Positions 5,792 to 49,921 of a stretch of 64,000 bases of DNA are shown here, piece after piece (the stretch's first letter is position 1; the number at the start of each line of letters is the position of its first letter). The position numbers and the translations under genes are program-made. The stretch is taken from NCBI GenBank assembly GCA_001029675.1, contig CP011210.1:777280-841279 (forward strand), in the 5' to 3' direction. Under the pieces are notes generated by a model. The model was not told the DNA's origin. It was given only the letters and a program-made list of their open reading frames with translations, and made no database searches. This DNA comes from Candidatus Beckwithbacteria bacterium GW2011_GWC1_49_16. GTDB lineage: Bacteria > Patescibacteriota > Microgenomatia > UBA1400 > CG1-02-47-37.

Positions 5792-6958
5792 ATGGTGAAA
5801 AGGCTGCTGTTGATTTTAGTGGTGGTTTTTGGCTTGGCCGTCGTACCGCTTGTGGCACAAAGCTCAAATGACGAATGCATTAATAAATCGGTTGAAGAAA
5901 AAGTCACCTGTTACGAAGCCAAGCTCCAAGAAAATCGAGGACAACAAAAAACTTTGGCCAGCACGATCGCTTATCTTGACAACCGTATTGCTCTAACTCA
6001 GTCCCAAATCGCCAAAACGGAAAATGACATCAAAATCCTTGAAGAAGAGATAGCCACCCTTGGCGTTAAAATCAATCGTCTTGATGTAAGCCTAGATGAA
6101 ATTTCCAACCTTTTGATAGCCAGAATCGGTGAATCGTATAAAAGGTCACTCTTTAGTCCTCACTATAACCTTCTGGCAGTTGGCGGATTAACTGACTATT
6201 TAGAAAGAAATCAATATCTTAAGATAGCGCAGCAAAACGACCGCAAAGTGCTTTTAGAGCTTCAGGGCGCAAGAGATACAACTCAACTCCAAAAAGACTT
6301 AAAAGAGCAAAAACAACTTGAGCTGGAAGAATTAACTCTCCAGCTGGCTAACCAGAATCGAGATTTAGCCCAACAGAAAAGCAGTAAGGGCGATCTTTTG
6401 GCACAGACTAAAAACGATGAAAGAGTTTATCAGCAGTTGTTAGCTACTGCTCGGGCAGAATACCAAGCAATTCAAGCAATCGTTGCCCTTAAGGGCCAAG
6501 AAACTGAAGTGAGGCATGTTAGTGAAGGTGAAAAAATAGCTACTGTTATTCAAGGGGCTTCCTGCAATTCCACCGGAACACACGTACACTTTATTATCAG
6601 CGAGAACGGTGTCAGTAAAAATCCTTTTAGCTACTTAAGCAGCAACATTAGTTATACCAACTACTCCGGCGGGGATGCTTTTAACCCATCGGGAAGTTGG
6701 CGCTGGCCAATTGAACCACACATCAGATTTAATCAGGGTTATGGTGTGACGTGGTTTGTTCAAACCTATGGTTGGTACCCATTCCATAATGGCATTGATA
6801 TCACTAGCGAATCTTCAAACGACATCAAGGCGGTAAAGGCAGGAACTTTGTATAATGGTAGCTATTCAGGAAGCGGCGGCTGTACCCTCCCCTATGTTCG
6901 CGTCGATCACGACGAGAATAATTTGGACACTTTTTACCTGCACGTTTTTTCTAGTTAA
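5792..6958 (+). CDS. EnvC-like coiled-coil protein with peptidase M23 (LytM) domain
   Basis: Signal/TM, long coiled coil, then M23 motifs STGTHVHF and FHNGIDI. Gene is AT-rich by eye. Confidence 0.7.
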   Translation: MVKRLLLILVVVFGLAVVPLVAQSSNDECINKSVEEKVTCYEAKLQENRGQQKTLASTIAYLDNRIALTQSQIAKTENDIKILEEEIATLGVKINRLDVSLDEISNLLIARIGESYKRSLFSPHYNLLAVGGLTDYLERNQYLKIAQQNDRKVLLELQGARDTTQLQKDLKEQKQLELEELTLQLANQNRDLAQQKSSKGDLLAQTKNDERVYQQLLATARAEYQAIQAIVALKGQETEVRHVSEGEKIATVIQGASCNSTGTHVHFIISENGVSKNPFSYLSSNISYTNYSGGDAFNPSGSWRWPIEPHIRFNQGYGVTWFVQTYGWYPFHNGIDITSESSNDIKAVKAGTLYNGSYSGSGGCTLPYVRVDHDENNLDTFYLHVFSS

Positions 6959-6964
6959 ATAAAA

Positions 6965-7780
6965 ATGCCTGCCCGAAAAATTTTCAAAAGCTTTGTTATT
7001 GGCGCCATCTCTGGCGCCTTATTTTTATTCGCCGCCGCGATCCCAACCCAGGCCCAAGTAAAACTCAACGAGATTTTTGCCAACCCTGTGGACGAAAATG
7101 ACGAGTTTATTGAACTCTACAATACTGGCGATCAACCGGTAACCCTGACCGGCTATAAAGTCAACGACTTGGTCAAAACCTATGTTTTACCAGAGGCTAC
7201 CATCAGCGCTAAAGGATTTTTTGTTGTTTTAACCCGACAAGTTTCTCCTCAGGTACAACTTAATAACACTACCGAAACAGTCACCTTAAAAGATGCTGCC
7301 GACAATACCGTCGACAGCTTCAGCTACGACGGTACCACTGAAAATACCTCGTTCTCCCGCTACCCAGACGGCACCGGAAGCTGGAACAGCCAAACCGCGG
7401 TTACCCAAAACGCGCCCAACCAGGAATCACCACCTTCCCCTTCCACCACTCCCGAAGACGACCAGGAGCCGTCGCCTTCGCCCAGCCCCTCGCTGGCGCT
7501 CGGGGTAAACCCATCGCCTTCTGCCTCGGCTAAGGCGTCGGTAAAACCATCTGCCAACGCCTCGCCTAGCGACAGCTTTGACTCGATGGCGATGCTTTTA
7601 TCGACCGAGTCCGGCGAGATTTTGGGGGCGACCGAGGCGGCCGAGGAAAATACAGAAGAGAAAAAGCCGACGAGCCCATATTTTGTCCCGGGAATTTTGG
7701 CGGTTTTGGGAGTAACACTTTTTGGCGGAGCCGGGGCGGTTTTATATAAACAATACCGAAGCGGTATAATTGAGAAATGA
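6965..7780 (+). CDS. lamin-tail-domain (LTD) surface protein with Pro/Ser-rich linker and C-terminal TM anchor
   Basis: LTD motif KLNEIFANPVDENDEFIELYNTG. PS-rich low-complexity region. C-terminal hydrophobic helix. Confidence 0.6.
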   Translation: MPARKIFKSFVIGAISGALFLFAAAIPTQAQVKLNEIFANPVDENDEFIELYNTGDQPVTLTGYKVNDLVKTYVLPEATISAKGFFVVLTRQVSPQVQLNNTTETVTLKDAADNTVDSFSYDGTTENTSFSRYPDGTGSWNSQTAVTQNAPNQESPPSPSTTPEDDQEPSPSPSPSLALGVNPSPSASAKASVKPSANASPSDSFDSMAMLLSTESGEILGATEAAEENTEEKKPTSPYFVPGILAVLGVTLFGGAGAVLYKQYRSGIIEK

Positions 7781-10518: not shown

Positions 10519-11352
10519 ATGCCAACGTGGGTGGTGATGGCGTTTGCGGGAGGGTTTTTGTCGAACCTGGCTTTTTTTGTCACCAGAAAAGCTTTGAAAG
10601 AAGAGGACCCGACGGCTTTCGGCTGGTGGTTTGAGGTGATGCGGCTGGCGGCTTTTAGCGCTTTGGCTTGGTTTAACTTTAAGCTTGAGCTAAGCCCGGC
10701 GGCATTTTTCTGGCTGGCGGCCTTGGGAGTGACGGAAATAGCGGCGATGTACTCTTTTGCCAAGATGCAGAGCTTGACGGAACTGTCGGTGGCCAGCATT
10801 GTGTCCCGCTTGCGGCTGGTGTGGGTGCCTTTAATCGCCTTGGCGGTTTTGGGAGAAAGACTGGCAGTAAGCGAATACCTGGGGATAGCTTTGTTGTTTT
10901 TGGGGTTGTCGGTGGTGGCCTCGCCCAGGAGAATCAGGAACGACTCGGGAATAAAGTACGCCCTGTTTTTTTCGGTGACGGCGGCGGTCAACTCGGTGCT
11001 GATGAAACGAGGTGCCGCTTTTGCCTCGACGCCGGTACTCTTGGCGGCGATGAGCCTGCCGGCCATCTTGGCTTTCCCGGCTTTAATGAAAAGCTCGAAA
11101 ATAAGAATTGCGGCCTCGTTTAAAAAGAGGATTAAGGCCAACCTGGTGTTTTTGGCGTTTAACGTGGTGTCGATGTATCTTTTCGTCGAGGCTTTGAGGG
11201 TCGGCCCTGCCAGTAAAGTGGTTGGTTTTTACCAAAGCATGCTGATTATAGCGGTGATTTTGGGAATTGTGGTCTTAAAAGAAAGAGAGCGGATTGTTAA
11301 AAAAGTCGCCGGAAGTTTGTTGACCCTGGTAGCCATTTGGCTACTGGTTTAG
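10519..11352 (+). CDS. 10-TM membrane protein (DMT/EamA-like), paralog B
   Basis: Clearly alignable to 9122..9961 (AFGWWFEVMRLAAF vs AYAWWFEFLRLVVF; GERL motif). Confidence 0.5.
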   Translation: MPTWVVMAFAGGFLSNLAFFVTRKALKEEDPTAFGWWFEVMRLAAFSALAWFNFKLELSPAAFFWLAALGVTEIAAMYSFAKMQSLTELSVASIVSRLRLVWVPLIALAVLGERLAVSEYLGIALLFLGLSVVASPRRIRNDSGIKYALFFSVTAAVNSVLMKRGAAFASTPVLLAAMSLPAILAFPALMKSSKIRIAASFKKRIKANLVFLAFNVVSMYLFVEALRVGPASKVVGFYQSMLIIAVILGIVVLKERERIVKKVAGSLLTLVAIWLLV

Positions 11353-24603: not shown

Positions 24604-25023
24604 CTACCCCAAGCGTTCAATTAGTTCTTTGGGGTTAACTATTCTTGGTCTTTTGACTCGAGTTTTTAAACTAAGAATGTGCTTTTTATCCAAGCTAACC
24701 AAGTAATCCGCCTTAATATCTTGACAAGAGGCGAGAAGATGGGCGTCTCCGGGATCTGCCACTGTCTTTGATAATTTGTCAACAGACTTTAAGCCAGGGG
24801 CTGGATAAATTTTATTAAAAGCCAATAAACAATTTCTGAAATGCCGGCGAGAAACTTTAATCTTTGAGAGGTGGCGTCTGATTTCATCGAGAACAATTTC
24901 GCTAATGACGCCGTTAATTCTTCCTTGACTACCCCAGTTGATGAGTTTAGCCGAGCCACCAGATTTTGATCTTAAAGCGGCCAAAACTACCGAAGCGTTA
25001 AAAAAGACAACCGGCACTGACAT
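24604..25023 (-). CDS. PIN-domain-like protein (putative VapC-type toxin, first Asp replaced by Asn)
   Basis: PIN-like acidic positions (EIVLDE, DPGD, SLD), but the N-terminal motif reads FFNASVV. Start overlaps the stop of the upstream AbrB gene. Confidence 0.4.
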   Translation of the reverse strand: MSVPVVFFNASVVLAALRSKSGGSAKLINWGSQGRINGVISEIVLDEIRRHLSKIKVSRRHFRNCLLAFNKIYPAPGLKSVDKLSKTVADPGDAHLLASCQDIKADYLVSLDKKHILSLKTRVKRPRIVNPKELIERLG

Positions 25024-25274
25024 TATTTTTTAGATTTTGTGCCTTTTTGCAGCTGGTCGTCAAAATCAAAAAAGTCTTTTAATTCCTCGTCGGTGTAACT
25101 TCTGACAGGATAAGGCAAAGTTCTAACCGGTTCCAGATAAATTCTACCCTTGTCTTCCTTAATCCTAATTAAACCATTTTCCTCAAGGCCATATTTAGCT
25201 CTAATCGCCTTGGGAACAGTCATGAGCCCTTTAGGCTGGAGTTTGACGATAGTCTCCAATGATTGCTTTTGCAT
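25023..25274 (-). CDS. AbrB/SpoVT-family antitoxin-like DNA-binding protein
   Basis: Swapped-hairpin motif LQPKGLMTVPKAIRAKYGL. 83 aa. Confidence 0.6.
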   Translation of the reverse strand: MQKQSLETIVKLQPKGLMTVPKAIRAKYGLEENGLIRIKEDKGRIYLEPVRTLPYPVRSYTDEELKDFFDFDDQLQKGTKSKK

Positions 25275-25349: not shown

Positions 25350-25805
25350 ATGAATAAAATTCCCTTCACCCAGGCAGGCTTGTCTAAAGTTATCGCCGAA
25401 AGAGATAAGTTCACGGCCGAGCGGCCGGAGGCGGTGGCCCACTTGCAAAAAGCCCGGGAAATGGGCGATCTGTCCGAAAACGGCTATTATAAAGAGTCCC
25501 GGGCCCGTCTATCTTTTATCGACGGCCGGTTGAGGTACCTGGAACGGATCATTAAAGCGGCCGCGGTGGTTGCGCCGGTTGGCGGCGATACCATTGGTTT
25601 TGGCAGCCGGGTGAAGTTAAACGACGGGGTGAAAGAATTTGAATACACTCTGGTCGGTTCGTTTGAGTCCGATCCAACCAAAAAAACCATTTCCGCCCAG
25701 TCTCCTCTGGGCCAAGCCCTGATGGGCAAAAAAGTCGGCGACCAAGTGACGGTAACCACTCCCAAAGGCACGACCGGATATCAAATCCTCAACGTCAGCG
25801 CTTGA
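25350..25805 (+). CDS. greA: transcription elongation factor GreA
   Basis: GreA N-terminal coiled-coil and C-terminal FKBP-like domain. Start taken at MNKIPF (25350), not the track's 25263. Confidence 0.8.
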   Translation: MNKIPFTQAGLSKVIAERDKFTAERPEAVAHLQKAREMGDLSENGYYKESRARLSFIDGRLRYLERIIKAAAVVAPVGGDTIGFGSRVKLNDGVKEFEYTLVGSFESDPTKKTISAQSPLGQALMGKKVGDQVTVTTPKGTTGYQILNVSA

Positions 25806-27591
25806 AGTTTAAATCTTTTTTTCTTAACCGCAAATGATGCGGCGTCACTTCCAAAAGTTCGTCCGGACCGATGAAAGTTAAGTATTGCTCCAGGGACATT
25901 TTTAAGGCCGGGGCGATTTTAATGGTGGCGTCGGAGGTCGAAGCGCGCATATTGGTCAGCTGCTTGCCCTTACAGATATTAAAATACATATCTCCCTGGC
26001 GGTTATTGAGGCCGATAATCATGCCTTGGTAAACTTCTTCTCCGGGACTGACAAACGATGTCGCCCGCTCCTGAAGATGGGCAATGGCGTAGGCCAAAGC
26101 TTTGCCGGGCTCGCTGGCAACGACCGCGCCGCTTCTTTGCCACACCACCGCTTCTTCTTCCGGCTCATAGTCCCAAAAGACTGAGTTGACCACGCTCGCG
26201 CCCGAGGTTTTGGTTAAAAGTTCGCCCCGCAAGCCGATCAGGTTTTTGGTGGAGATTTTATATTCAAAGCGCACTCCGCTTTTGGCGGTCTGCATGTTGA
26301 CCATAGCTGCTTTTCTTTGACCCAGGCTGTTTAAAACCACGCCGTTATATTTTTCCGGCACTTCGAGGTACAGTTTTTCAAACGGCTCTAAAGTCTTTCC
26401 GCCTTCTTTTTTGTAAATCACCTGCGGCTGGGAAACGGAAAACTCGTAGCCTTCGCGGCGCATCGTCTCCACCAAAATCGACAAGTGCAGTTCGCCCCTG
26501 CCGGCGACGACAAAACTGTTACCCGAGGCGTCGGCTTCGATTTTGAGACTGATGTTAGTCTCGATTTCCTTCTTGAGCCTGGTCTGGATTTGTCGCGAAG
26601 TGGTCAACTTACCGTCTTTGGCCACCAAGGGTGAAGTCGATACAGACAGTTCGATTTTTAAAATCGGTTGGGTAATTTCCAACGGCGGCATTGGGTCTAA
26701 ATGCTCCGGGTCGGTCAAGGTGTCACCGATTTTGATTTCGGAAAAACCAGCCAGAGCGACGATCTCGCCCGCCGCCGCCAGGTCAATTGCCTGTTTTCTT
26801 AACCCCTGGAAAGTAAACAGATATTCGACGTTTCCCTGGCCCACCCGCTTATCGTCCCTGACAATGGCCAAACTCTGGCCAACCTTGATGGTGCCCCGGT
26901 TAATCCGGCCGATGGCGTAGCGGCCTTTATGGGCATCGTAATCCAGGGTAGTAATCTGCATCTGCGCCGGACCGCGTCGGTCACCCGGAGGCGCGGGGAT
27001 AGTTTTAATAATCGTTTCAAACAGCAGAGACAAATCTTTATCGTCTTTTAAATCCACGTTTTTGCCGACCACGCCGCGACGGCCGACGGCGTACAAAACC
27101 GGAAAATCGAGCTGATCCGAGTGCTCGACCAAGTCCAAAAACAGATCACTGATTTCGTCTAAGACTTTAGCGGCTCTTTGATCTTTGCGGTCGACTTTGT
27201 TGATGATCACGATCGGCTTTAACTTAAGTTTTAAGGCCAAAGACAAAACATAGCGGGTTTGCGACAACACCCCTTCGGCGGCATCTACCAAAAGCAAACA
27301 GCCCTCGGCCATGTTTAAAACCCGTTCGACTTCGCCGGAAAAATCGGCGTGGCCGGGGGTATCGATGATGTTAATTTTGTAACCTTGCCAGCTGATGGCC
27401 GTGTTTTTGGCCAAGATGGTCACACCCCGTTCGCGCTCCAACTCGGTGGAGTCGAGAATCATGTCCTGCTGCATTTGCGCCTCGTGGGCGGCAAAGGCGT
27501 GGGATTGCTTTAACAAATGATCAACCAGGGTAGTTTTGCCGTGGTCAACATGGGCGATGATGGCGATGTTTCTGATTTTGGCTTGATCCAT
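25795..27591 (-). CDS. typA: translational GTPase TypA/BipA
   Basis: G1 [18 protein letters not shown]. Length about 600 aa. Confidence 0.9.
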
Positions 27592-27662: not shown

Positions 27663-27733
27663 TGCCGGGTGGTGAAATGGCATCACTGCTGGCTCTGAAC
27701 CAGCCATTCTAGGTTCGAATCCTAGCCCGGCAA
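27663..27733 (+). tRNA. tRNA-Gln (anticodon CTG)
   Basis: Cloverleaf folded by hand: acceptor TGCCGGG/CCCGGCA, D-stem GTGA/TCAC, anticodon loop CTCTGAA, T-arm CTAGG-TTCGAAT-CCTAG. CCA not encoded. Promoter-like TTGTAT...TATAAT upstream. Confidence 0.8.
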
Positions 27734-27745
27734 CCCCTCGACTAT

Positions 27746-28006
27746 ATGGCTTATTTTGTATATATCTTGCGAACCTCCGCAAACACTCTTTATATCGGCC
27801 AGACAAATAATTTGACAAAACGGCTTAAAGAGCATAAAGAAAAATCTAACAGGTCGGCAAGATATATCAGGTATTTTTCTTCTTTTGAACTGGTTTATAA
27901 AGAATCGCATCCTACCCGCGTCGAGGCAATGAAGAGAGAATGGCAACTGAAAAAATGGCCTCGAGCTAAAAAAGAAGCGTTGGTAAAGAAGAAGCTAAAA
28001 GCCTAG
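27746..28006 (+). CDS. GIY-YIG nuclease family protein (YhbQ/UPF0213-like)
   Basis: YFVYILRTSANTLYIGQTNNLTKRLKEH aligns to YhbQ. Starts 13 nt after the tRNA. AT-rich. Confidence 0.65.
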   Translation: MAYFVYILRTSANTLYIGQTNNLTKRLKEHKEKSNRSARYIRYFSSFELVYKESHPTRVEAMKREWQLKKWPRAKKEALVKKKLKA

Positions 28007-28024
28007 CTTTTCTTTGACGAAGAT
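27988..28024. repeat. left copy of direct repeat (degenerate 3' fragment of the LUD gene)
   Basis: Core 27999-28024 aagcctagcttttctttgacgaagat vs 33017-33042 aaccctagtttttctttgacgaagat. Minus-strand reading gives IFVKEKLGF*, the same as the true LUD C-terminus. Confidence 0.75.
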
Positions 28025-28041
28025 GGGGTCCACGTTGGAGA

Positions 28042-31000
28042 CTAACCGAAGAAATCATCTCGTGGCGATGAATTTGCTCCTATCTTATCTATAAATTCCC
28101 TTATTAGGTTAATTCTTGTGCTCTTTCTACCGCGCTGCTTATTGAGATAAAACAGGTTACGAATTTGCACAAACCACTCCCAAGGAACTTCTAGTTTATT
28201 CGATACAAAAACGTTCAACAGCCTCTGAATATAGCTGGCGTCTGATTTTCTGCCTGACCAAGCCTGCTTGATAAATTCTTTCCCTAATTCTCTCCGAACT
28301 TGCTGGCGAATTTTTTGGATTTTCTCACTGTTTAAGATACTTTGATTATGTTCGCTAACCAAACTAATGAATCCGTCGAGAAACCCAACATAGTCTCCCT
28401 GGCGAAAAGTGTTAAAAACCTCAACTTCCTGTTTAGAAAACGAAAAGTCCGTAGGTAAATCGATTGCCCCCAAGGTTCCATCTTGGCTAATAATAAAGTT
28501 GCCGGGGTGAGGATCTTGAGGGAAGATATACTGCCCAACATCCACACCTACAGGCGTTTCAAAAAAAGAATCTACAAATCCTAAAACTATATGCAACGCC
28601 TTAAGGGTTGTTTTAATATCCTCGGATAAGTTATCCTGATTTTCTAGCCACTGATTAAAATTTTTAGAATCGAATGGTACTTTGTTTTTGGCTAAATAAG
28701 AAGATACTTGACGATTTTGCAGATACCGATTAAGCGTCGAACCGGCTAAATATTCTTCTACTCTAATATGATTGTCTGGGGTGGCAAATAGCGGCTTGGC
28801 GGTGATAATTGGCTTGTCGATTTTTTCAGATATAGCTTTAATCGCCTGGCGCAAGATAGCGCCCCATTGGGGTTTGTTATCTTTCAGATCTGCCTTGCTC
28901 CAATGTCGCGCCACTCCCAACACAATTTGGGCCAGCTGGGCGTGTTTTTTGGTCTGCTCGTTTCCGTGTTTCTCGGCGTACCGGAGGGCCGCTATGGTGC
29001 TATCGTAGGAAATATCAACAAAGGCAGCAGCGTTTGCCGTATACATTTTTAAGGCAGCGGTTTTGACTCCTAGCTTCTTGATTCCTTTGGGGGTTAAAGA
29101 GACTTTGTAGGCCGAAGCAAGGCTACCTCCTCCTAAAAATTCGTCTATTGTATCTAACATTTCTCCGACAAATAGGCTTAGAGAAGTTTCCGCATCACCA
29201 GATTTATCATCCTCTACCTCCTTATGGAGATTGAGCCAAAGCTTAAATTCATCGGTGGGCTGCATCCGATCAAAGGCGTTGCTTAACCTTTTGGCTAGCT
29301 TTGGCTCGAAATCGTATACCAGCTGGGCTATTTGCAGAGAGCGCACGAATAAACTACCCATTGATTCGATACCTTGAATAAAAGACTCTGTCCGGGGGGA
29401 AAGGCCGGATTGCTCGGCCGCCTCAACCTCCTGATATTTTTGAGTCAAGTTAAAATTACTGGTATATGCTTCAAGCCATTGATGCAGGCGCCTCAAGTGA
29501 CTAGTGGATGCTTGATATAATTTTGATAGAGCCTCCAGGCCAGTTTTTCCTCTTAAAATACTGCCTATTTCTACTATGTTATCCCTTGATTCGCTGAATA
29601 AATTTGGTAAATAGCTGTATTCTGGCTTTCCTGAAAAAGCGCTGCCCCTTTTGTAAAATTCTTTCTTAATTCTGGTGTAGTTAATTGCCTGCAAATCCAG
29701 CCCGGAAAAAAGCAACGGTCCTAAAAGTTGGGATAAACCTAACCCTACCAATGAAGGTTTACCCTCGATAATTAATCCTTTGGCAACTTGCTTGACGAAG
29801 TCGTCTTCAATATTGAATGACTTGACTACGAGATCGGCCAACCACTGTCTCTTCTCGGTAGTAGCAAGCAAACCATCTGAATCAAGAAGCAAGCGCATCA
29901 TCAGACCCTTTTTAGCGCCCTCTGATAATCCTTGGAGTCCTTGAATTACATCTTTGACTGTGCGGAAACGATCACGTTCTCTAAAAGGATCGATAATTAC
30001 TTTTCTGAGCTGTCGGTCAAACTGGATTCCGCTGCTTGGCTTGGTGTCGTCGGTTTTAATCTTGGCTATAAAAGTACCCAACCAGGTTTTAGCCAAATCG
30101 GTGGTATATTTGAGCTTTGATAGCGGATCGTCTGCGATAGTACCCACCACCCACTGCTTATCCTTAAAGAGCGATACCACTAGGTCTCCGATGGCCAAAG
30201 CATCTAACTTCCAGGAATTTTCGTCTCCGCGGAGCACGGCCATTCGCTCCAAGCCGATTTGATCAAAAAAGTACTTGGCGTCGTCATAATGCTTCACCTG
30301 TTTCATCAGCACTAAAAGATCGCTATAGGAAAATTTATGGTAATTATCTAGAAAATAATCCATTCGGCTTCTTATTTTTTCTGGGTTTGACTCGGCGGAG
30401 ATAATATAGGCCAGACGCAGGTCATGAATTTTTCGACTTAGATCAGGGCTGGCGTCCGTCATGTCAATCCCACCACCAATACCACTGACGATATTCTCAA
30501 ATGCTTGAATTGCCGCTGGTAGGACTTCGGAGTCAATATCCTGATGCAAAAAGTCAATAAACTTTCCTTCAAAGAAGGGGTAGAAAATAAGTCCGGCAAG
30601 ATTTGATGAAAATATTTTTTTGGAACGATAGTGAGAGTGCATGCCGAGGTAATGAGCGTGATCGATGCGTTCGTTGTAGTCAGCCAAAGCTTGGTCTAAG
30701 GCGACAAAGGATTCAATTTGATAGGTGTGCTCCAGTTTCTTCTGAAAAGAAAGGTGAAGTGGGGAAGTAGCCAGTTTTTCTCCCATATATAAAGTTTGAT
30801 CACCAAACCAATAAGAAAAGTTAAGTACATGCCAGATTTGATCGTTAAGTGAAAGTCGGTCAAAGTCACTGCCGTAATGCTTTTCCATATAGTGTAACGA
30901 ATCGACCATTACCTGCCTTTTCTCTTCATATGCTTTAAAGGACGGATATGTATCTACTTCTAAATTTGCAATAAATGCTTCAAGGCGCATTTTCAATGAA

Positions 31001-32988
31001 CTGGGAAGCACTTTGCCCTTTTCATCAAGACTAAATAAAGTGGACGTCTCACGCTCTGTTTCAATTTGAGGGTCAAAATCAAGTCCGGTAAAATCGGCTG
31101 ATCTTACTTGCTCTCGAAGATAAGTAATGATGGGCGCATAGTGTTTTCTAATCTCAGTTGCAAGCGGGTGAGATTCTGCTAACTGAATGTTGCTATACAG
31201 CAATCTTCTTAAATTACTGAATTTTCTATATAAAACGTGTACTTCTTTCTCAGAGAAAATACTGTTGAGTATTCTAGATACCTGTTCTAAGCTAAAAAAA
31301 GCTGGCTCGGACTCAAGCTGCTCTTTATAGAGATTAACTCCGAATACTTCTAGAAAAATAGGCTCCAGCTGGTCTTTGGTTAGTTGGGTGACTCGGTCAG
31401 AATCAATGTCGCCTTTTTTGTTTCTAAAGATTTGATGAGTGCCAAGGGCGTTTTCGAGAAGCAACCATGTATCAGATGCGGGGCTATACCCTGTTTTGGC
31501 GATTTTTTGAAGTAGTTGTCTTAACTCCTTTTGGTCAACTCGTTGTGTTTTTGGATCAAATAATCTAGCCGCAATATATGTAGAAATAATGGGGTCTACA
31601 TGCCACCAGTATTTGCCGAATTGCTCGTCTTTATCCTGTCTTGCGAATTCAACATACGCCTCAATAATCTCGAGAAAAGTGTTTTCTTTTATAGCTACAC
31701 CCTGGTTAATCAAGAAAGTTATCTGGCCCTCGCAGGCAGCGTCAATGTCAGTCTGTCGGGCATACAAACCATCCCAGTCGCCTGGCCAATTGTCTCGGGC
31801 ATAGACTCCGAAAATTCTATAGTTCATTCCTCTCCATTGTTTTGGATCAATTGTGTGTCCGTGTTTAAGAATCTTGAGGTAGTCTTGGTAAGTATGGTTG
31901 GAAAAGGCATGCTGGCGCCATCTCTCATTCCCCCACCACATCGTCAAAAGAAGGCTGTCTTGGTCGAGAGGTAATAAGTCTACGTCTGTAGTACGTTTTC
32001 GAAGAAATTCAGTAAGCGCTTGTTGAAAAGCCTCACTATCTTTAAGATCCCCCCTGCTAAAACACCCGTTATCCAGTAGTTGGCATAAATCTTGAGAATG
32101 GAGCTTATCTAGTAATTCAGCCGCGTTTCCTTCAACCAGTCCCTCGGGCCACATTTCGGCAATTTCGCGGTTTGTTGGCTTAATTTCTTGTTTATAGAAA
32201 CTAATGGTTTCGCCGTCGGGTAAAGCTACCTTGTCCAAGGGAATAATGTCGGCGCTACTGAATTTCCGATTGATAAATTGGTGCTCGATGAGAGGAAGGC
32301 TGGCTCGCATCAGGGGTGATTGATGGCCTAAGTCGGTTCTTTGGTTTAAGCTTTCTTTAGCTTGGCGTTCAAAAAAATCATGGGCGACTAAAGTATTTAT
32401 TCCGACTTTATCAAGCAACCGGGAAACCTCGGCATCCGCCCCAAGCTCATGGACCCACTCTGTCGAGATGCTTTCTCGAGAAACATAGGTACCATTGATT
32501 AAATGGGCAACTTCGTGGGCAATAATACCCAAAGCGGCACTAAAAGAACCGGAGCGGTTTATCAAGGATTGAGAAAGAACTATGGTTCCGTCAGGAAGAA
32601 TAAATCCTTTTTCGGTTAACCCCCGGTTAAGAATAACTACCTGAACGTCGCCTTTGTAAACCTCACCTTGCAACATTTTCTTGGCATATTGACCTAATAT
32701 CCTGGTTCTTTCAGAACCGCTTTCTGTTTCATGGGTAACAGCTAAATATTTTTGGGTTTGATTAGTGAAATCGTTGTTTGCTTTAATTTCTTGTTCTGTT
32801 AACGTTCTGTCCGGGTAAGCGTCTGAAAGTATAAATAATGGTTTTAAAGTTATATCGGCTTCCCCCCGAAATTCCCCAGGCATGTCTGACACGGAATAAA
32901 GTGGTTCTGGCTTAGCCTCAACCTTGCGACCACCAAATAAATCTCCAAGATCCAATCCTGCCGTCTTTAGAGTAGCTACTTCCCCCAT
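28042..32988 (-). CDS. giant multidomain protein: N-terminal HExxH zincin-like domain, long helical middle, C-terminal ABC1/UbiB-like atypical kinase domain
   Basis: IIAHEVAHL...E zincin motif near aa 170. C-terminal ABC1 motifs (LASAYKV, GVKTAALKM, DPHPGNFII, AIDL). AT-rich relative to flanks. Confidence 0.6.
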   Translation of the reverse strand: MGEVATLKTAGLDLGDLFGGRKVEAKPEPLYSVSDMPGEFRGEADITLKPLFILSDAYPDRTLTEQEIKANNDFTNQTQKYLAVTHETESGSERTRILGQYAKKMLQGEVYKGDVQVVILNRGLTEKGFILPDGTIVLSQSLINRSGSFSAALGIIAHEVAHLINGTYVSRESISTEWVHELGADAEVSRLLDKVGINTLVAHDFFERQAKESLNQRTDLGHQSPLMRASLPLIEHQFINRKFSSADIIPLDKVALPDGETISFYKQEIKPTNREIAEMWPEGLVEGNAAELLDKLHSQDLCQLLDNGCFSRGDLKDSEAFQQALTEFLRKRTTDVDLLPLDQDSLLLTMWWGNERWRQHAFSNHTYQDYLKILKHGHTIDPKQWRGMNYRIFGVYARDNWPGDWDGLYARQTDIDAACEGQITFLINQGVAIKENTFLEIIEAYVEFARQDKDEQFGKYWWHVDPIISTYIAARLFDPKTQRVDQKELRQLLQKIAKTGYSPASDTWLLLENALGTHQIFRNKKGDIDSDRVTQLTKDQLEPIFLEVFGVNLYKEQLESEPAFFSLEQVSRILNSIFSEKEVHVLYRKFSNLRRLLYSNIQLAESHPLATEIRKHYAPIITYLREQVRSADFTGLDFDPQIETERETSTLFSLDEKGKVLPSSLKMRLEAFIANLEVDTYPSFKAYEEKRQVMVDSLHYMEKHYGSDFDRLSLNDQIWHVLNFSYWFGDQTLYMGEKLATSPLHLSFQKKLEHTYQIESFVALDQALADYNERIDHAHYLGMHSHYRSKKIFSSNLAGLIFYPFFEGKFIDFLHQDIDSEVLPAAIQAFENIVSGIGGGIDMTDASPDLSRKIHDLRLAYIISAESNPEKIRSRMDYFLDNYHKFSYSDLLVLMKQVKHYDDAKYFFDQIGLERMAVLRGDENSWKLDALAIGDLVVSLFKDKQWVVGTIADDPLSKLKYTTDLAKTWLGTFIAKIKTDDTKPSSGIQFDRQLRKVIIDPFRERDRFRTVKDVIQGLQGLSEGAKKGLMMRLLLDSDGLLATTEKRQWLADLVVKSFNIEDDFVKQVAKGLIIEGKPSLVGLGLSQLLGPLLFSGLDLQAINYTRIKKEFYKRGSAFSGKPEYSYLPNLFSESRDNIVEIGSILRGKTGLEALSKLYQASTSHLRRLHQWLEAYTSNFNLTQKYQEVEAAEQSGLSPRTESFIQGIESMGSLFVRSLQIAQLVYDFEPKLAKRLSNAFDRMQPTDEFKLWLNLHKEVEDDKSGDAETSLSLFVGEMLDTIDEFLGGGSLASAYKVSLTPKGIKKLGVKTAALKMYTANAAAFVDISYDSTIAALRYAEKHGNEQTKKHAQLAQIVLGVARHWSKADLKDNKPQWGAILRQAIKAISEKIDKPIITAKPLFATPDNHIRVEEYLAGSTLNRYLQNRQVSSYLAKNKVPFDSKNFNQWLENQDNLSEDIKTTLKALHIVLGFVDSFFETPVGVDVGQYIFPQDPHPGNFIISQDGTLGAIDLPTDFSFSKQEVEVFNTFRQGDYVGFLDGFISLVSEHNQSILNSEKIQKIRQQVRRELGKEFIKQAWSGRKSDASYIQRLLNVFVSNKLEVPWEWFVQIRNLFYLNKQRGRKSTRINLIREFIDKIGANSSPRDDFFG

Positions 32989-33003
32989 GCTTACATATTA
33001 CTA

Positions 33004-33042
33004 GAAGAAAACCTAAAACCCTAGTTTTTCTTTGACGAAGAT
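33004..33042. repeat. right copy of direct repeat (intact 3' end of LUD gene)
   Basis: Matches 27988-28024, with 2 mismatches across the 26-nt core. Confidence 0.75.
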
Positions 33043-33636
33043 TAAAGTGAGGCGGCCGGGCGTGGTTTCCTGATTGAAAATCAACAGCTTGCTGACGTTT
33101 GATTTTTCCATGCCGTAGGCTTTTTGGACCCTTTTTGATTCCAGGGGCAAAATATAGTCGTAAATCCTTTTGACGCCTTGCTCTTGGTCGGCTACCAGTT
33201 TTTGGGTGCCCACCACCCAAATGACGTAGGTTGAGGAATAAGCATAGGCGCCGAGCTGGCTGCCGGTGTTGGAGGCGACCAAGACCTTGCCGTCAGCGGT
33301 GACGGCGTGGACGCTGCCGACGGCGTACTCGGGAGCCGCACCGAGTTTTTGCATTTCGAGTCCCTGGGTAACTCGATCCATCTGATTTAATTTGTTTCTG
33401 ACCGAGTTGAACTTGCCCGGCTCGTTTAAAGCCTTATCCAGCCCCAAAGTTTCCAAGGTAGTCGAGGACATGTTCATCACCTCTGCCCCGGCAGGCACCA
33501 ACTCTAAAACCTTGGCCTTAGCGGCCTCTGCGTTGTCCACCACCAAGGCATTGATACCGTTTTGCTTGAGGGCGGCAATGGTTTTTTGAATGGTGGTCTC
33601 GTCGGCGAGTTGATCCCAAGTGGGCATACTACCCAC
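33013..33636 (-). CDS. LUD-domain protein (LutC/YkgG, DUF162-like)
   Basis: Resembles lactate-utilisation LutC-like proteins. C-terminus is IFVKEKLGF. Confidence 0.5.
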   Translation of the reverse strand: MGSMPTWDQLADETTIQKTIAALKQNGINALVVDNAEAAKAKVLELVPAGAEVMNMSSTTLETLGLDKALNEPGKFNSVRNKLNQMDRVTQGLEMQKLGAAPEYAVGSVHAVTADGKVLVASNTGSQLGAYAYSSTYVIWVVGTQKLVADQEQGVKRIYDYILPLESKRVQKAYGMEKSNVSKLLIFNQETTPGRLTLIFVKEKLGF

Positions 33637-35021: not shown

Positions 35022-35459
35022 ATGATTTACCTTGGGGCGGACAAACAAGGATTTGAGGCGATAAAAATAGCCATGGAGTGGTTGGATAACCGAGGCTTTA
35101 AATATGAAAATTTGGGAGTAAAAAGCAAAGACCAAGACATGAAACTTGAAAATTTGCTGCCGCCGATAGCGGAGAAAGTCAGGGCAGACACAAAAAACTT
35201 AGGCATTGTTTCCTGCGGCACGGGCGTGGGGGTCGAGGTGGGGATAAATAAATTCAGCGGCATCAGAGCTTGTCTGGCCGACGACCCGGAAGTGACCGAG
35301 TGGTCGAAGATTTACGACAACTGCAACGTTTTGTGTCTTATCGGCTGGCGGCCGGACAGAGGAAAAATTGAAAAGATTTTGGTGAGTTGGTTTGCCGCCG
35401 GTTATGATGGCGATTCCGACCGATTAAAAATGATGCAGGAGTTTGATAAGTGGAGATGA
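35022..35459 (+). CDS. rpiB: ribose-5-phosphate isomerase B (RpiB/LacAB family)
   Basis: GIVSCGTGVGVEVGINKFSGIRA motif. 145 aa. Confidence 0.8.
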   Translation: MIYLGADKQGFEAIKIAMEWLDNRGFKYENLGVKSKDQDMKLENLLPPIAEKVRADTKNLGIVSCGTGVGVEVGINKFSGIRACLADDPEVTEWSKIYDNCNVLCLIGWRPDRGKIEKILVSWFAAGYDGDSDRLKMMQEFDKWR

Positions 35460-35463
35460 GCAT

Positions 35464-36168
35464 ATGTACGAAGAAAAAACAAACCAAAATCTTCAAAATA
35501 TTGGCCATAAAATAGGTCACTTACCCGAGGTTCAAACCCCTCTTAGAGTAGCTCAAGAAACGCCTTGGAAGGAACTTGCCAGTACTTTTGTGTCTTACTT
35601 AAAGGTGATCAAACGACTGGCTACCCTATCCGAAAAAGACATCGATGTTATTAGAAAGGTTAATCGTCAGCTAAGTGGCCACGGCGGTGCGGAATCTTTT
35701 GCCGAAAGCCTCGGCAAAGAAAATATAGGTACTTTGGTCGCACTTGCCGCCCAAACAGTTGATCCAAATTCAGATCATTATCAAGATGCGCTAAACGAAC
35801 TAACGATAATGATGGAAAACGCGCAGGCTATAAAAAAATCAGGTAAAACTCCTGTAGATGGGGATCCTTTATCTGATGCGGCAATCTGGGGCTATACTCA
35901 AGTAACTGACCCAGCAGCTCAACGACATAACATTATCTGCCACTGGCTCGAACGGCATATTTCCCATGATTTGAGGCCAAAGGGGGTAAAAATCGCTCAA
36001 AAGAAAGATTGGTTATTAACAGCCATGGCTGATGTTGTAGCTTTAGATGGGACAAGAAAAACCTTAGCAAACCCAGAAATTTTTGAGATTTGGACAACAG
36101 CTAAGCCAAAAGGGCTTGGCTGGATTGGCCAGGAAAAAGTGACTGCGTATCGCGAGGCGCTGAAATGA
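35464..36168 (+). CDS. hypothetical protein
   Basis: No motif. AT-rich. Start taken at MYEEKT, just after the rpiB stop. Confidence 0.35.
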   Translation: MYEEKTNQNLQNIGHKIGHLPEVQTPLRVAQETPWKELASTFVSYLKVIKRLATLSEKDIDVIRKVNRQLSGHGGAESFAESLGKENIGTLVALAAQTVDPNSDHYQDALNELTIMMENAQAIKKSGKTPVDGDPLSDAAIWGYTQVTDPAAQRHNIICHWLERHISHDLRPKGVKIAQKKDWLLTAMADVVALDGTRKTLANPEIFEIWTTAKPKGLGWIGQEKVTAYREALK

Positions 36169-36782
36169 TCCCTAAAAGAATTGCGGCTATTGGGGCGAGT
36201 TACTGCGAGGGCAAGGTTGACCCCGAAGGCGGCGGGTTTGTGGGCAGGCTGCGATCCTGGCATGAGAGCTTTATCCAGGATAATCATGTATTTAACCTAG
36301 GAATCAGCGGCGATACAACCAGCGACATGCTTAAGAGACTAGAAAAAGAAATGAAACCAAGAAAACCGGATTTAATTTTAGTTGTCGGCGGCTTAAACGA
36401 CTTCATCAGGCGAGAAAGCAAAATTGCTAAGCCTGATAACACCGTCGAAGGTTATGAGAAGAATATTAGAGACCTAATCGCTAAAGCCAAAAATTTGGCA
36501 CCAGTGTTGTTTGTTGGCGTTCAACCGGTTGATGAGGCACGGACAGCGCCAGTGAGCTGGGAAAATATTTATTATCTGCTTTCGGACGCTAAAACGGCTA
36601 CCGATATTACTAAAAAAGTGTGCTTAGAAATGAAAGTCCCCTATGTAGATGTTTTTGGTGAGTTTATGAAAATTGACTATAAAAAATATCTGGCTGACGG
36701 CTTACATCCAAATAGTCAAGGCCACCAAAGAATTTTCGAGTTGGTAAAAGATAAACTGATTGGGGTCTATGGGAAAAATTAA
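36165..36782 (+). CDS. SGNH/GDSL hydrolase family protein
   Basis: Block I GASY(S-like), block III GGLND, block V DGLHPN. ATGA overlap with the previous gene. Confidence 0.65.
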   Translation: MIPKRIAAIGASYCEGKVDPEGGGFVGRLRSWHESFIQDNHVFNLGISGDTTSDMLKRLEKEMKPRKPDLILVVGGLNDFIRRESKIAKPDNTVEGYEKNIRDLIAKAKNLAPVLFVGVQPVDEARTAPVSWENIYYLLSDAKTATDITKKVCLEMKVPYVDVFGEFMKIDYKKYLADGLHPNSQGHQRIFELVKDKLIGVYGKN

Positions 36783-46926: not shown

Positions 46927-48318
46927 ATGAAGCTTGAGTTGCCGGCTTCGGTAAAAAAAGTCTTAAAGACTTTAGCTGATGCCGGATTTGAAGTTTATAT
47001 TGTGGGCGGGGCGGTGAGGGATATTTTGACCGAAACTGCCGTCACCGACTGGGACTTTACCACTGACGCTAGGCCTGAGGAAATTACCAAGCTTTTTCCT
47101 GACGCTTTTTACGACAACGTCTTTGGCACGGTGGGGGTGGCGGAAGAACACCTCGGAGGCAAAGGCGAGGGTGTTTATGAAATCACTACCTTTAGAACTG
47201 AAAGTGGCTATTCTGATCGCAGACGCCCGGACCAGGTCACTTGGGGCAAATCTTTAGAAGAGGACTTGAAGAGGCGTGACTTTACCATCAATGCCATGGC
47301 TTTGAAAATCCGAAATCCGAAATCCGAAATCCGAAAAAAATTTGAGGCGGAAGTGGTGGATCCTTTTAGGGGAGAAGCCGACCTGCAAAGCAGGTTAATC
47401 CGGGCGGTGGGAGACGCCAACAAAAGGTTTAAGGAAGATGCTTTGCGGATGATGCGGGCGATCAGGATTGGGGCGCAGTTAAAGTTTGCCATTGAAGCGA
47501 AAACTTTGGCGGCGATCAAAAAAGATAGCCGGCTAATTGGTGAAATTGCCGCCGAAAGGATCAGAGACGAACTTTTGAAAATAATCGCCTCCCCTTATCC
47601 TAAGGAAGGAATTTTGCTGATGGCCAACAGCGGATTACTGGCTCAAGTTTTGCCGGAAATAATTCCCATGCGCGGGGTCCAGCAAGGCGGGCACCACACT
47701 AAAGACGTCTGGAATCACTCTTTGGATTCTTTGGCGGCTTGCCCCTCGCCGGACCCGATGGTGAGGCTGGCGACGCTACTTCATGACGTCGGTAAACCTC
47801 AAGTCAAAAAAGACCGGGGACGGGGCAAGGAAATTACTTTTTACAACCACGAGGTGGTGGGGGCGCGGATGACCAAGGTAATTGCCGAAAGACTCAAACT
47901 GTCTAAAAAACAAAAAAATTTGTTGTGGATCCTGGTACGCTGGCACATGTTTGCTTATGAACCGCAGATGACCGACAAGGCTGTAAGACGCTTTATCCGC
48001 CGGGTGGGCCGTGACAATATTAACAAGATGATGATGCTACGAATCGGCGACCGGGTGGGCGGCGGCACCAAGGCTACCTCCTGGAGATTGAGGGAGCTGC
48101 AAGAGCGGATCGGTCAGGTGCTTTACAGCCCGATGGAAATCAAGGACTTAAAGGTGAACGGCCGCGATGTAATGAAGATTTTGGAAATTAAGTCGGGGCC
48201 AAAGGTGGGTGAAATTCTAAAGAAGCTGTTTGACGAGGTGATGGAAGACGCCGGCAAAAACAAGCGCGAGTACTTGCTGAAGCGGATTAAGCAACTCTAT
48301 CACACACCGGGTGTGTGA
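46927..48318 (+). CDS. cca: CCA-adding tRNA nucleotidyltransferase with HD domain
   Basis: Head motif GGAVRD. HD motif LLHDVGKP. The last codons HTPGV* are contributed by a REP element. Confidence 0.8.
   Translation: MKLELPASVKKVLKTLADAGFEVYIVGGAVRDILTETAVTDWDFTTDARPEEITKLFPDAFYDNVFGTVGVAEEHLGGKGEGVYEITTFRTESGYSDRRRPDQVTWGKSLEEDLKRRDFTINAMALKIRNPKSEIRKKFEAEVVDPFRGEADLQSRLIRAVGDANKRFKEDALRMMRAIRIGAQLKFAIEAKTLAAIKKDSRLIGEIAAERIRDELLKIIASPYPKEGILLMANSGLLAQVLPEIIPMRGVQQGGHHTKDVWNHSLDSLAACPSPDPMVRLATLLHDVGKPQVKKDRGRGKEITFYNHEVVGARMTKVIAERLKLSKKQKNLLWILVRWHMFAYEPQMTDKAVRRFIRRVGRDNINKMMMLRIGDRVGGGTKATSWRLRELQERIGQVLYSPMEIKDLKVNGRDVMKILEIKSGPKVGEILKKLFDEVMEDAGKNKREYLLKRIKQLYHTPGV
47308..47335. repeat. 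four tandem heptamers (ATCCGAA)n inside cca coding sequence
   Basis: atccgaa x4 followed by an A7 run. Encodes IRNPKSEIRKK. Confidence 0.8.
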
Positions 48319-48322
48319 TAGG
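48299..48322. repeat. REP-like palindromic element, copy 1
   Basis: atcacacaccgggtgtgtgatagg. Stem ATCACACACC/GGTGTGTGAT. Confidence 0.75.
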
Positions 48323-48327
48323 AGTCA

Positions 48328-49038
48328 CTACCCTGCCTCGGGTTCTTCAAGCAATAAATTTTTAATCCTGGCTAATTCTCTTTGGTAGTCTGCCTGACCA
48401 GAAACAAAGTCCTCGTAACCAGAATTACCCTTAAAATAACTTAATACCAAGTCTTTCTGGCAAAGATTATTTTCAGCTGAACCCAAGTATTCCGGTAATG
48501 AAGAGTGGGGATATTTTTTTAATTCGGTAATCGATTTAACTATTCCGGCGCTATAAGGATTTAAATGAATATATCGGGAAACATGGAGCAGTTGCTCTTC
48601 AGTTTCGACCCTAACCGATTTAAATCTACCTTGGAAAAGAGGTCCGATACGCTTATTTTTAGTGTTGAAATAATGGGCATAACTCTCTGAAAACTTACGA
48701 ATAAATTCTGAAATTCCGTTGTCGGACACTTGCTTCAACAATAAATGAAAATGATTAGGCATGAGGCAGTAGCAGATAATCTCAACTAAATAATTTTTGG
48801 TTTGCTTTAATTGCGATAGTTTTTCAACTTTGGCAGACTGCGGTAAACGAGAAAAGTAAGAATAACGTAACGGTGGGGCCGCGTGTTGATAATATAGCAT
48901 TGCTTCTAAAAAGCGGTTATAGTGGCGACCGTTAACAAAAATTGGCATCGAGGCCACGCCTCGATTAATAATGTGATAAATTTCTCCTGTCACTGAAGGG
49001 TCTTTCCTAGGCGGCATTAACTCTACTCTATCACACAC
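48328..49038 (-). mobile_element. REP-associated tyrosine transposase (RAYT) / IS200-family Y1 HuH transposase gene
   Basis: HuH motif MPNHFHLLL. Catalytic Tyr region SRYIHLNPYSAGIV. AT-rich. Flanked by identical 26-nt REP sequences. Confidence 0.7.
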
Positions 49039-49050
49039 CGGGTGTGTGAT
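49030..49050. repeat. REP-like palindromic element, copy 2
   Basis: actctatcacacaccgggtgtgtgat is identical to copy 1 including the 5' flank. Confidence 0.75.
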
Positions 49051-49921
49051 GTTTGGTTTTAAGCTGCTCCCATAAAACTAATAGAGGGGCGGCGGTAAAG
49101 GTAGATGAGTAAGTGCCGGAGATGGTGCCGATAAGAAGAGTAGCGATAAACCACTTGATGGTGTCCCCGCCCAAAAGGAATAAACTCATCAGCATAAAGA
49201 TTATGGTCAGCGAGTTGTTGATGGAGCGGGCCAGAGTTTGAGTGATCGCCTGGTTGACGACTGAAGCAAAATCTGCCTTGGGCTGGGTTTTAAGATTTTC
49301 CCGAATTCTGTCGTAAACGACGATGGTGTCGTGGACAGAAAAGGAGAGGATGGTGAGAAGAGCGGTGACAAAGAGGGCGTCGACCTCGACGCCGTAAGCG
49401 TAACCCAAGAAACTGAAGCTGCCTAAAATGATAAAAGTATCGTGGAGCATGGCTAAAATGGCACAGACGCCGTATTTTTTGTCCTTAAAGCGAAAGGTAA
49501 CGTAGGCCAGGATGAAACCGGCGGCAAGCAAAAGGCTAACCAGAGTTTTTTTGATCAATTCTTGTCCCAGGGTGGGGCCGATGGTGGCAAAACGCTTTTC
49601 GGTGACGGGCGCGTCAAGCTCGGCCGATAAAAGCTGTTGGAGTTTTAAACTTTGGCTTTGGTCGATGGGGTGGCTTCGCAGTAAAAACGAATTGGGGCCG
49701 GTTTGCTGAAGGCTGGCTAGGTTGATTTGGGGTTCTAGAACCGCTTTGACTTGGGACAGAGTGGCCGACCGGCTGGCGCTAAGTTCGACTTCCAGAAGAG
49801 TGCCGCCGGTAAAGTCGACGGCGGGCTTTAAGCCGAAACGAACCAGAAAATAGGCGCCGGAGAGAATAAAGATGGCGGAAATGAGAAAGTAAACTAGGCG
49901 GTATTTTAAAAAGTTAATCAT
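49031..49921 (-). CDS. secF: protein translocase subunit SecF
   Basis: SecF N-terminus (FLKYRLVYFLIS..., VDFTGGT). C-terminal HHTPGV* comes from the REP. Confidence 0.85.
   Translation of the reverse strand: MINFLKYRLVYFLISAIFILSGAYFLVRFGLKPAVDFTGGTLLEVELSASRSATLSQVKAVLEPQINLASLQQTGPNSFLLRSHPIDQSQSLKLQQLLSAELDAPVTEKRFATIGPTLGQELIKKTLVSLLLAAGFILAYVTFRFKDKKYGVCAILAMLHDTFIILGSFSFLGYAYGVEVDALFVTALLTILSFSVHDTIVVYDRIRENLKTQPKADFASVVNQAITQTLARSINNSLTIIFMLMSLFLLGGDTIKWFIATLLIGTISGTYSSTFTAAPLLVLWEQLKTKHHTPGV

Follow-up and report, generated by a model that had tools for sequence, protein, structure and literature searches.

How did the end of one gene come to stand on both sides of another? In the genome of Candidatus Beckwithbacteria bacterium GW2011_GWC1_49_16, the last codons of an intact gene for a LUD-domain protein are found twice, 5,018 bp apart, and the interval between the two copies is filled by a single giant open reading frame (ORF) of 1648 amino acids (aa). 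The locus lies in the 64,000-nt stretch of contig CP011210.1 that we analysed (positions 777,280 to 841,279; hereafter the window). An earlier note on this DNA had described the two copies as a direct repeat and read them as attL/attR attachment sites of a site-specific insertion or as the product of homing. We find that the repeat is real, and we put at roughly 0.9 the probability that the left copy is the displaced 3' end of a previous version of the LUD gene, i.e. the scar of a rearrangement or insertion. The giant gene most likely arrived by ordinary recombination and not as a mobile element; for the specific mechanism, homology-facilitated illegitimate recombination (HFIR), in which one-sided homologous recombination is combined with an illegitimate join, we see about even odds. 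The features on which the argument turns are the following.

33010..33042, minus strand: right copy of the repeat, the live LUD 3' end, i.e. the last nine codons (IFVKEKLGF), the stop codon at 33013-33015 and 3 nt; the gapped extension reaches 33005
27992..28024, minus strand: left copy, an orphan relic of a LUD 3' end; the gapped extension reaches 27986
28042..32988, minus strand: giant ORF, 1648 aa, filling the interval between the copies
33013..33627, minus strand: LUD-domain gene, 204 aa from the ATG at 33627, intact (Pfam E = 2e-18)
27746..28006, plus strand: GIY-YIG gene, 86 aa, catalytic domain only (Pfam E = 3e-18)
27663..27735, plus strand: tRNA-Gln(CTG), 10 nt upstream of the GIY-YIG gene
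28025..28041, no strand: 17-nt spacer from the relic to the stop codon of the giant ORF, holding the junction of incoming and resident DNA (28024/28025)

The cores of 26 nt given in the earlier note (27999-28024 and 33017-33042) differ at two positions (28001, G/C; 28007, C/T). Alignment bears this out and takes the similarity well past 12 nt: the ungapped direct repeat is 33 nt long (27992-28024 and 33010-33042) with 30 of 33 positions identical, and includes a 17-nt exact run at 28008-28024. The looser extension to the left that had been noticed is also present; with one gap, the alignment widens to 39 and 38 nt and reaches 27986 and 33005, respectively. The identical 17-nt block lies toward the gene body and is followed by the diverged tail, and the distal boundary of the ungapped repeat falls 3 nt beyond the LUD stop codon. 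The segment enclosed by the copies is 4,985 bp, of which only margins of 17 and 21 nt separate the giant ORF from the repeats.

Could this similarity have arisen with no historical event behind it, by chance, through low complexity or through convergence on a functional motif, for example a terminator hairpin acting in both directions? The sequence is indeed rich in A/T, part of it forms a palindrome (AAAAGC-CTA-GCTTTT), and weak hairpins are predicted around the left copy. Nevertheless, the pair is the top-scoring direct repeat in the 25-36 kb part of the window; the two copies are the sole matches in the window to a 23-mer pattern with up to three mismatches, which had no match in 100 shuffled sequences; and the alignment score of 25.5 lies above the maximum of 21 obtained in 40 simulated 64-kb sequences. 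Thus, the low-complexity or chance coincidence that the earlier note had named as its refutation did not hold. Moreover, the left copy is the conserved LUD C-terminus and stop codon, in frame. A terminator or structured RNA was considered and rejected: fold z-scores were weak (-1.7 and -1.6 for the left copy, near 0 for the right), no terminator was called at either copy or between the LUD gene and the giant gene, and an Rfam search had no match except the tRNA. In total, we conclude that the repeat is a real historical feature and that a chance or motif origin has next to no probability.

On the minus strand, both copies encode IFVKEKLGF followed by a stop codon. Nearly all of 16 LUD homologues from various lineages of Patescibacteria, 64-71% identical overall, end in (L)I[FL]VKEKLGF-stop. 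Because this ending is the family-wide LUD C-terminus, the repeated sequence is LUD coding sequence and the left copy is a LUD 3' fragment; the right copy, which matches the conserved family ending, is the genuine end of the gene, as had been proposed. The description of the left copy as an orphan fragment abutting the stop codon of the giant gene is likewise confirmed: it has no start codon, reading in frame upstream meets a stop 19 codons away at 28055-28057 (...RLVSNVDPIFVKEKLGF-stop), it lies 17 nt from the stop of the giant ORF, and it overlaps the last codons and stop of the GIY-YIG ORF on the plus strand. Judged on the sequence alone, an extension of the giant ORF into the relic frame by frameshifting was set aside, since it needs a -1 shift at GAU UUC UUC GGU, which is not a canonical slippery site.

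The conservation of the peptide calls for calibration. Between any two LUD genes, 22-25 of the 30 nucleotides (codons plus stop) already agree, and two random encodings of IFVKEKLGF with the codon usage of this genome share 24 of 30 on average (P = 0.016 for at least 28 of 30). The relic and the live tail share 28 of 30, which moderately exceeds the LUD-family baseline. Both mismatches within the ORF, AAG/AAA and GGC/GGG, are synonymous. To the LUD tail of the syntenic relative L092, the relic is identical at 27 of 30 positions and the live tail at 25 of 30, and the relic has the nucleotide state of the relative at both mismatches. Therefore, the relic looks like the lineage's own older tail, and the live tail was either altered later or came from elsewhere.

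The other edge of the relic lies within the GIY-YIG gene. The GIY-YIG family is large (1,549 homologues at E<=1e-15, typically 82-90 aa) and usually ends in AKKEALI-xGxLxLLKKL; the xGxLxLLKKL tail is absent from the window gene. Homology to the 75%-identical GIY-YIG gene of the relative L107, in DNA as well as in protein, ends at 27985 (...KKEALV), and from there on the gene reads KKKLKA-stop off the antisense strand of sequence derived from LUD. The earlier observation that the left copy supplies the last codons (KKLKA-stop) of this gene, stop included, is thus correct, and the relic accounts for its atypical C-terminus. Because the GIY-YIG homology ends at 27985 and the family tail is missing, the relic is bounded by two genuine breakpoints, one at about 27986-27992 on the GIY-YIG side and one at 28024/28025 on the side of the giant gene.

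Along the plus-strand coordinates, the gene order is GreA, TypA, tRNA-Gln(CTG), GIY-YIG, LUD relic, giant ORF, LUD, CAP-domain gene, CHRD-domain gene and RpiB. Two of these genes lie beyond the tRNA:

25350-25805, plus strand: GreA
25795-27591, minus strand: TypA

TypA and GreA are convergent and overlap by 11 nt at 25795-25805. Overlapping convergent ends are thus normal in this genome, which makes a former overlap of the LUD and GIY-YIG ends plausible.

In the collections searched, no relative of the LUD or GIY-YIG gene exceeded ~70-80% identity. In L107, the order is LUD, acyltransferase, DUF5680, GreA, His-phosphatase, permease, dCMP deaminase, GIY-YIG, thioredoxin-like gene, tRNA-Gln(CTG) and ThiI; the interval between the LUD and GIY-YIG 3' ends thus holds six ordinary genes in L107 and the giant gene in the window. 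This synteny indicates that the frame LUD...GIY-YIG...tRNA-Gln...ThiI is ancestral and that the GIY-YIG gene and the tRNA are resident. The linkage of tRNA-Gln and GIY-YIG is also seen in L107, with the thioredoxin-like gene in between. L092 has in common with the window S11 peptidase, h354, GluRS and h263, followed by LUD and GreA, and has a 342-aa acyltransferase gene 24 nt past LUD. A recurrent cassette site was considered, as an acyltransferase gene follows LUD in L092 and L107, and was rejected, as no LUD relic follows the acyltransferase. Relatives at 85% TypA identity among species-representative genomes (L012 and L013) were tried as the ancestral state; they have different neighbours, with no GIY-YIG or LUD gene nearby.

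The search for an empty site proposed in the earlier note was run on metagenome contigs and returned none: the exact junction pattern (GIY-YIG-side flank, 10-40 nt, LUD-side flank) was unmatched, and all contigs with identical LUD, giant or GIY-YIG proteins had the filled arrangement. The Patescibacteria population in groundwater (Rifle) was represented by about 100 sample blocks, always with the filled arrangement.

If the left copy is a displaced gene end, similar relics may be expected at other genes. We scanned 88 LUD loci with a complete 3' end for a second LUD tail and, more widely, the 3' ends of 1,280 genes in all fetched loci. A second LUD tail was detected at 2 of the 88 LUD loci, i.e. 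the window (score 26.5) and the Levybacteria-like contig L098 (score 25.0), while the background maximum was 14.5. Among the 1,280 genes there were approximately seven independent relics downstream in direct orientation, two inverted and none upstream, which puts such relics at ~0.5% of the genes sampled in related genomes.

The Pacebacteria contig L050 comes closest to the window case: there, the last 21 TypA codons, the stop codon and 5 nt are found twice, 4,560 bp apart (6212-6281 and 10772-10841; 70 nt, 61 identical); seven of the eight differing codons are synonymous. Its insert is of lower GC content and encodes no recombinase; of its two ORFs, one is co-oriented, has NHL repeats and is 1200 aa long, and the other is 283 aa long. 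In L098, the second LUD tail is decayed (3857-3917 and 3532-3593; 62 nt, 77% identity), with about 37 recognisable codons including internal stops; the spacer between the LUD tails holds, on the other strand, a 33-nt relic of an FtsZ tail (...IPAFLRQRN-stop, 3733-3765), and the intact FtsZ gene lies 2.3 kb off, past three small genes. The L098 insert shares no sequence with that of the window. L116 also has an FtsZ tail relic, 29 nt long (7020-7048), in which every differing codon is synonymous. It lies 3.1 kb downstream of FtsZ, with the LUD 3' end ~1 kb away, and the position suggests that LUD and FtsZ once converged in this lineage. Further relics are found in L097/L100 (UvrD-like gene) and L073. 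The genes enclosed are mutually unrelated (serine hydrolase, PPC-domain protein, aspartyl protease, PAP2), and no recombinase is among them. Two comparisons were uninformative: TypA C-termini vary in length among relatives, so that no outgroup could be used for the L050 relic, and L006, tried as the empty-site comparator for L098, has unrelated downstream genes.

Two properties of these relics bear on how they arose. Firstly, similarity ends at the stop codon in the L098 and L116 FtsZ relics and 5 nt past it in L050. A repeat that ends near a stop codon is expected from homology between two versions of one gene, not from a target-site or tandem duplication. Secondly, the differences between relic and live copies fall on codon positions 1/2/3 in the ratio 15/3/27 (chi-square p = 7e-5), and among the 17 codons that differ in the four best-preserved pairs, 15 do so synonymously (P = 1e-4 to 0.03 if an in-situ duplicate decayed neutrally). 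Mostly synonymous differences indicate that the two copies diverged while both were coding.

These properties are difficult to reconcile with a duplication made in situ, by which the giant gene would have been inserted into overlapping LUD and GIY-YIG ends by staggered-break repair, or by which a tandem duplication with an endpoint in the LUD tail would have been followed by deletion, the survivors being only those that kept both genes intact. Such a duplication would explain why direct repeats flank the insert exactly; convergent genes overlap here, as the 11 nt of TypA and GreA show, so that parting LUD from GIY-YIG requires a duplicated overlap; the tandem-duplication model yields the relic order of L098; and the identity of 28 of 30, with a shared rare CTA leucine codon and TAG stop, is above that of unrelated LUD genes. 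It leaves unexplained why the stop codon is the boundary of the repeat in the window and in L050 alike, and the mainly synonymous differences of the relics as a class are unexpected under neutral decay of non-coding DNA. Moreover, no young, identical relics were found among the 1,280 genes, the window insert has neither terminal inverted repeats (TIRs) nor a transposase, and to our knowledge an imperfect duplication of 33-70 nt fits no transposition chemistry. We therefore regard an in-situ duplication as unlikely.

Synonymous-only differences would also fit two once-functional copies, i.e. a tandem LUD paralogue whose body was deleted or overwritten by the giant gene and of which the tail was left; the L098 relic, with its ~37 codons and internal stops, does resemble a longer, decayed LUD fragment. 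Duplicated housekeeping genes are unusual in such small genomes, and a second LUD gene was found nearby at none of the 88 LUD loci, within the fetched flanks, which argues against a decayed paralogue. This history also needs more steps than HFIR, with the giant gene still arriving separately, and we consider it very unlikely.

What, then, is the DNA that separates the live LUD end from its displaced predecessor? The giant gene is a compositional outlier: its GC content is 42.4% against a gene mean of 49.5%, its GC content at third codon positions (GC3) is 41% against 58%, and its tetranucleotide distance is 0.28, compared to 0.11-0.18 in all other 5-kb windows. An exhaustive search with residues 1-1200 returned homologues in 141 cluster representatives (50% identity), mostly of 1,500-1,750 aa and with conserved blocks at ~aa 70-300 (M48-like, with HEXXH) and ~aa 850-1150; the best full-length matches are 35-37% identical and none is above 37%. 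In Pfam searches with the whole ORF and four pieces of it, the only match was a weak one to M48 near the N-terminus, and no recombinase, transposase or nuclease domain was found; a PDB sequence search had no match either, and a recombinase hidden in the giant protein was rejected on these grounds. One homologue has an ABC1 kinase-like Pfam match; a DPHPGN...IDL motif occurs toward the C-terminus of the window protein, with no Pfam match to back the resemblance. A viral or plasmid origin was rejected, as there were no matches in IMG/VR, the INPHARED phages or the PLSDB plasmids. In the readable contexts of five homologues, the neighbours are DnaJ, NAGPA, MurJ/YchF and Trx/DUF4153; the two closest homologues (35-37% identity) both lie near a YchF GTPase gene. 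None of the homologues with a readable context has LUD as a neighbour or repeats at its flanks, and LUD tails are likewise missing around those in L004, L005 and L178.

From the anatomy of the locus we infer the following order of events. In the ancestor, LUD and a 3'-truncated GIY-YIG gene would have been convergent with an overlap of ~12 nt, the end and stop codon of GIY-YIG being read from the antisense of the LUD tail. The incoming DNA, most likely after uptake of foreign DNA, would have consisted of the 3' part of a diverged LUD gene together with the giant gene. At one end, a homologous crossover would have occurred inside LUD; at the other, an illegitimate join 30 nt upstream of the resident LUD stop, at 28024/28025. 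The outcome would be an intact LUD gene with an incoming, foreign tail, then the giant gene, and then the stranded last 30 nt and stop of the old LUD gene, a relic that would have been kept because it now encodes the end of GIY-YIG. HFIR, or 'C-terminal displacement', would accomplish this with no need for an element-encoded recombinase. A single HFIR event, from a donor with convergent LUD and FtsZ, could also reproduce the order of both L098 relics.

HFIR has been described in the natural transformation of Streptococcus pneumoniae, Acinetobacter baylyi and Pseudomonas stutzeri (PMC3240628). There, foreign DNA lying beside a homologous anchor is taken in by one homologous crossover and one illegitimate junction with no element-encoded recombinase, and the outcomes include insertions coupled with deletions or with short resident leftovers (PMC3240628). 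The window has the corresponding anatomy, i.e. an intact LUD gene as the anchor, then non-homologous DNA in the form of the giant ORF, then an orphan LUD 3' fragment as the leftover resident end, in direct orientation, and no recombinase. It differs in that the window case is read from sequence anatomy alone, a donor, the LUD crossover point and microhomology at 28024/28025 not having been observed. Orphaned 3' ends produced by C-terminal displacement are also known from Rhs, contact-dependent inhibition (CDI) and type VI secretion system (T6SS) effector loci, for which HFIR was proposed (PMC5361080 and the Rhs work cited therein). In those loci, too, new DNA follows an intact gene, and beyond it, in direct orientation, stands the 3' end displaced from the prior version of that gene; however, the displaced ends there are different toxin domains whose retention is adaptive (immunity genes), whereas the displaced end in the window, 33 nt in length, encodes the nine residues in which the live LUD protein, of housekeeping type, also ends, and a single giant ORF makes up the cargo.

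The part of the earlier note that had the insertion fall at the LUD 3' end with the gene end kept intact agrees with this anatomy, as the giant gene stands between the live end and the relic. The mechanism it proposed fared less well. For integration at attL/attR by an element that targets the LUD 3' end and brings a replacement end, with the integrase since lost or acting in trans, several observations can be cited. Direct repeats with an identical core are present at both ends of the insert (30 of 33, with the 17-nt exact run); the arrangement, an imperfect repeat of 33-39 nt where a conserved gene ends, is the one that a core joined to a replacement end would give; as at genomic islands, imperfect repeats of tens of nucleotides bound a compositionally atypical insert and the 3' end of the target is regenerated; LUD tails are duplicated at two of the 88 loci; and a replacement end borne by an element would show the same coding-constraint signature. 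Yet no integrase, recombinase or excisionase is encoded in the insert or within 10 kb, the Pfam lists of genes within 10 kb on either side containing neither an integrase nor a transposase. The insert is a single ORF whose 17- and 21-nt margins leave no room for arm sites, and the cargo fills the interval. Nor is there a recurrent element: the L098 insert is unrelated, giant homologues elsewhere have no LUD-tail repeats, relics are found at TypA, FtsZ and UvrD-like genes with unrelated, recombinase-free cargo, the giant gene has no viral or plasmid relatives, and the exact-pattern scan of metagenome contigs gave no empty attB. Finally, the tRNA-Gln is not duplicated: it is the sole tRNA in the window, and no fragment of it is repeated anywhere in the window. 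A tRNA-targeting island was rejected on this ground and because the linkage of the tRNA to GIY-YIG is ancestral. Altogether, site-specific integration appears distinctly unlikely.

Homing does not fit either: the GIY-YIG ORF lies outside the segment bounded by the repeats, is resident and has no DNA-binding domain beyond the catalytic domain. As for transposition, the copies do flank the insertion immediately, as the target-site duplication (TSD) of a transposon would. Typical TSDs are 2-15 nt and identical. The window repeat is 33-39 nt, imperfect and bounded at a stop codon, the insert encodes no transposase, and its ends are not linked by an inverted repeat; the earlier note's view that the duplication is too long for a typical TSD thus stands. 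The lack of any recombinase, the narrow margins, cargos that are unrelated to one another and the variety of target genes tell against site-specific integration; with a paralogue disfavoured as well, HFIR is left as the favoured model.

Does the LUD gene itself bear the mark of a crossover? Its similarity to relatives was ranked by thirds. In the first and second thirds, L107 ranks fourth and P0010 first, while in the last third the two rank 119th and 40th of 122; the C-terminal third ranks nearest Levybacteria-type sequences. A maximum chi-square breakpoint falls at ~aa 150-166, with p = 0.0005-0.05 for L107/P0007 and p = 0.08-0.66 for P0010, these comparators being chosen post hoc; the pattern at most hints at a mosaic LUD gene.

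Several observations weigh against a displaced LUD end left by such an event. The mosaic signal in LUD reaches significance with L107-type comparators alone; these have a divergent C-terminus themselves, and they were picked post hoc. Within the window alone, the synonymous signature amounts to two sites (P = 0.18-0.41), and the GIY-YIG frame on the opposite strand places a further constraint on the relic. At least two events are needed, one for the junction that truncated GIY-YIG and one for the junction with the giant gene. The giant homologue in L178 is likewise ~6 GC points below its flanks, so that membership of the giant-gene family accounts for part of the low GC. No giant homologue lies beside LUD in the contexts of P0122, P0124, P0245 and P0247, and none was found at the 88 LUD loci; a donor-type LUD-giant arrangement was thus not seen, in a sparse sampling in which the closest homologue is 37% identical. 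Finally, no empty site or closer relative was present in the collections searched, so that the ancestral LUD/GIY-YIG junction is inferred and not observed.

Other parts of the locus and the window can be described more briefly. The giant ORF starts 24 nt past the LUD stop codon, on the same minus strand; this gap, the shared strand and the lack of a terminator call make co-transcription of LUD and the giant gene plausible. The sole transposase in the window lies 15 kb away: a 236-aa ORF at 48328-49038 on the minus strand matches Pfam Y1_Tnp (IS200-like HUH transposase, E = 6e-10). It is flanked by two perfect 26-nt copies of ACTCTATCACACACCGGGTGTGTGAT (48294-49050), each with a 21-nt palindrome, and a third copy of the hairpin with one mismatch lies at 55235-55255. 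The convergent genes for a CCA-adding/poly(A) polymerase-like protein (46927-48318, plus strand) and SecF (49031-49921, minus strand) both end in ...HTPGV-stop inside the hairpin. The ORF and its hairpins look like a unit of the IS200 type or of the type formed by repetitive extragenic palindromes (REP) and their REP-associated tyrosine transposases (RAYT). The Y1 transposase and REP-like hairpins at 48.3-49.1 kb were considered as the agent at the LUD gene and rejected, as the hairpin motif is absent near the LUD repeat. Low GC3 is also seen in the PIN-domain gene of a MazE/PIN pair (0.39; within 24604-25274), in a 241-aa ORF at 35443-36168 with no Pfam match (0.36) and in a GDSL lipase gene (0.44; 35443-36782 region); the low-GC3 genes at 24604-25274 and 35443-36782 may have been acquired too.

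For this locus, the relic marks the 1648-aa giant gene as a later arrival and fixes one edge of the resident DNA to the base, at 28024/28025, the other side lying at ~27986. It thereby helps to date and delimit the acquisition of this gene. The scar is of a known kind, in a lineage where it has not been catalogued, and on present evidence calls for no new mechanism. A bolder proposal, which we judge improbable, is that insertion with regeneration of a gene tail is a regular, recombinase-free route to large accessory genes in the small-genome Patescibacteria (candidate phyla radiation, CPR). If this were true, a conserved housekeeping gene (LUD here, TypA in L050) would lend giant ORFs its 3' end as a portable homology anchor with which they travel, and displaced gene-end relics would form a genome-wide, datable record of acquisition. 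The relics also give grounds for not annotating repeats of this sort as att sites or as signs of a mobile element; they offer instead a marker, easily scored in sequence data, of genes gained through recombination with diverged homologues in bacteria that are uncultured and have small genomes.

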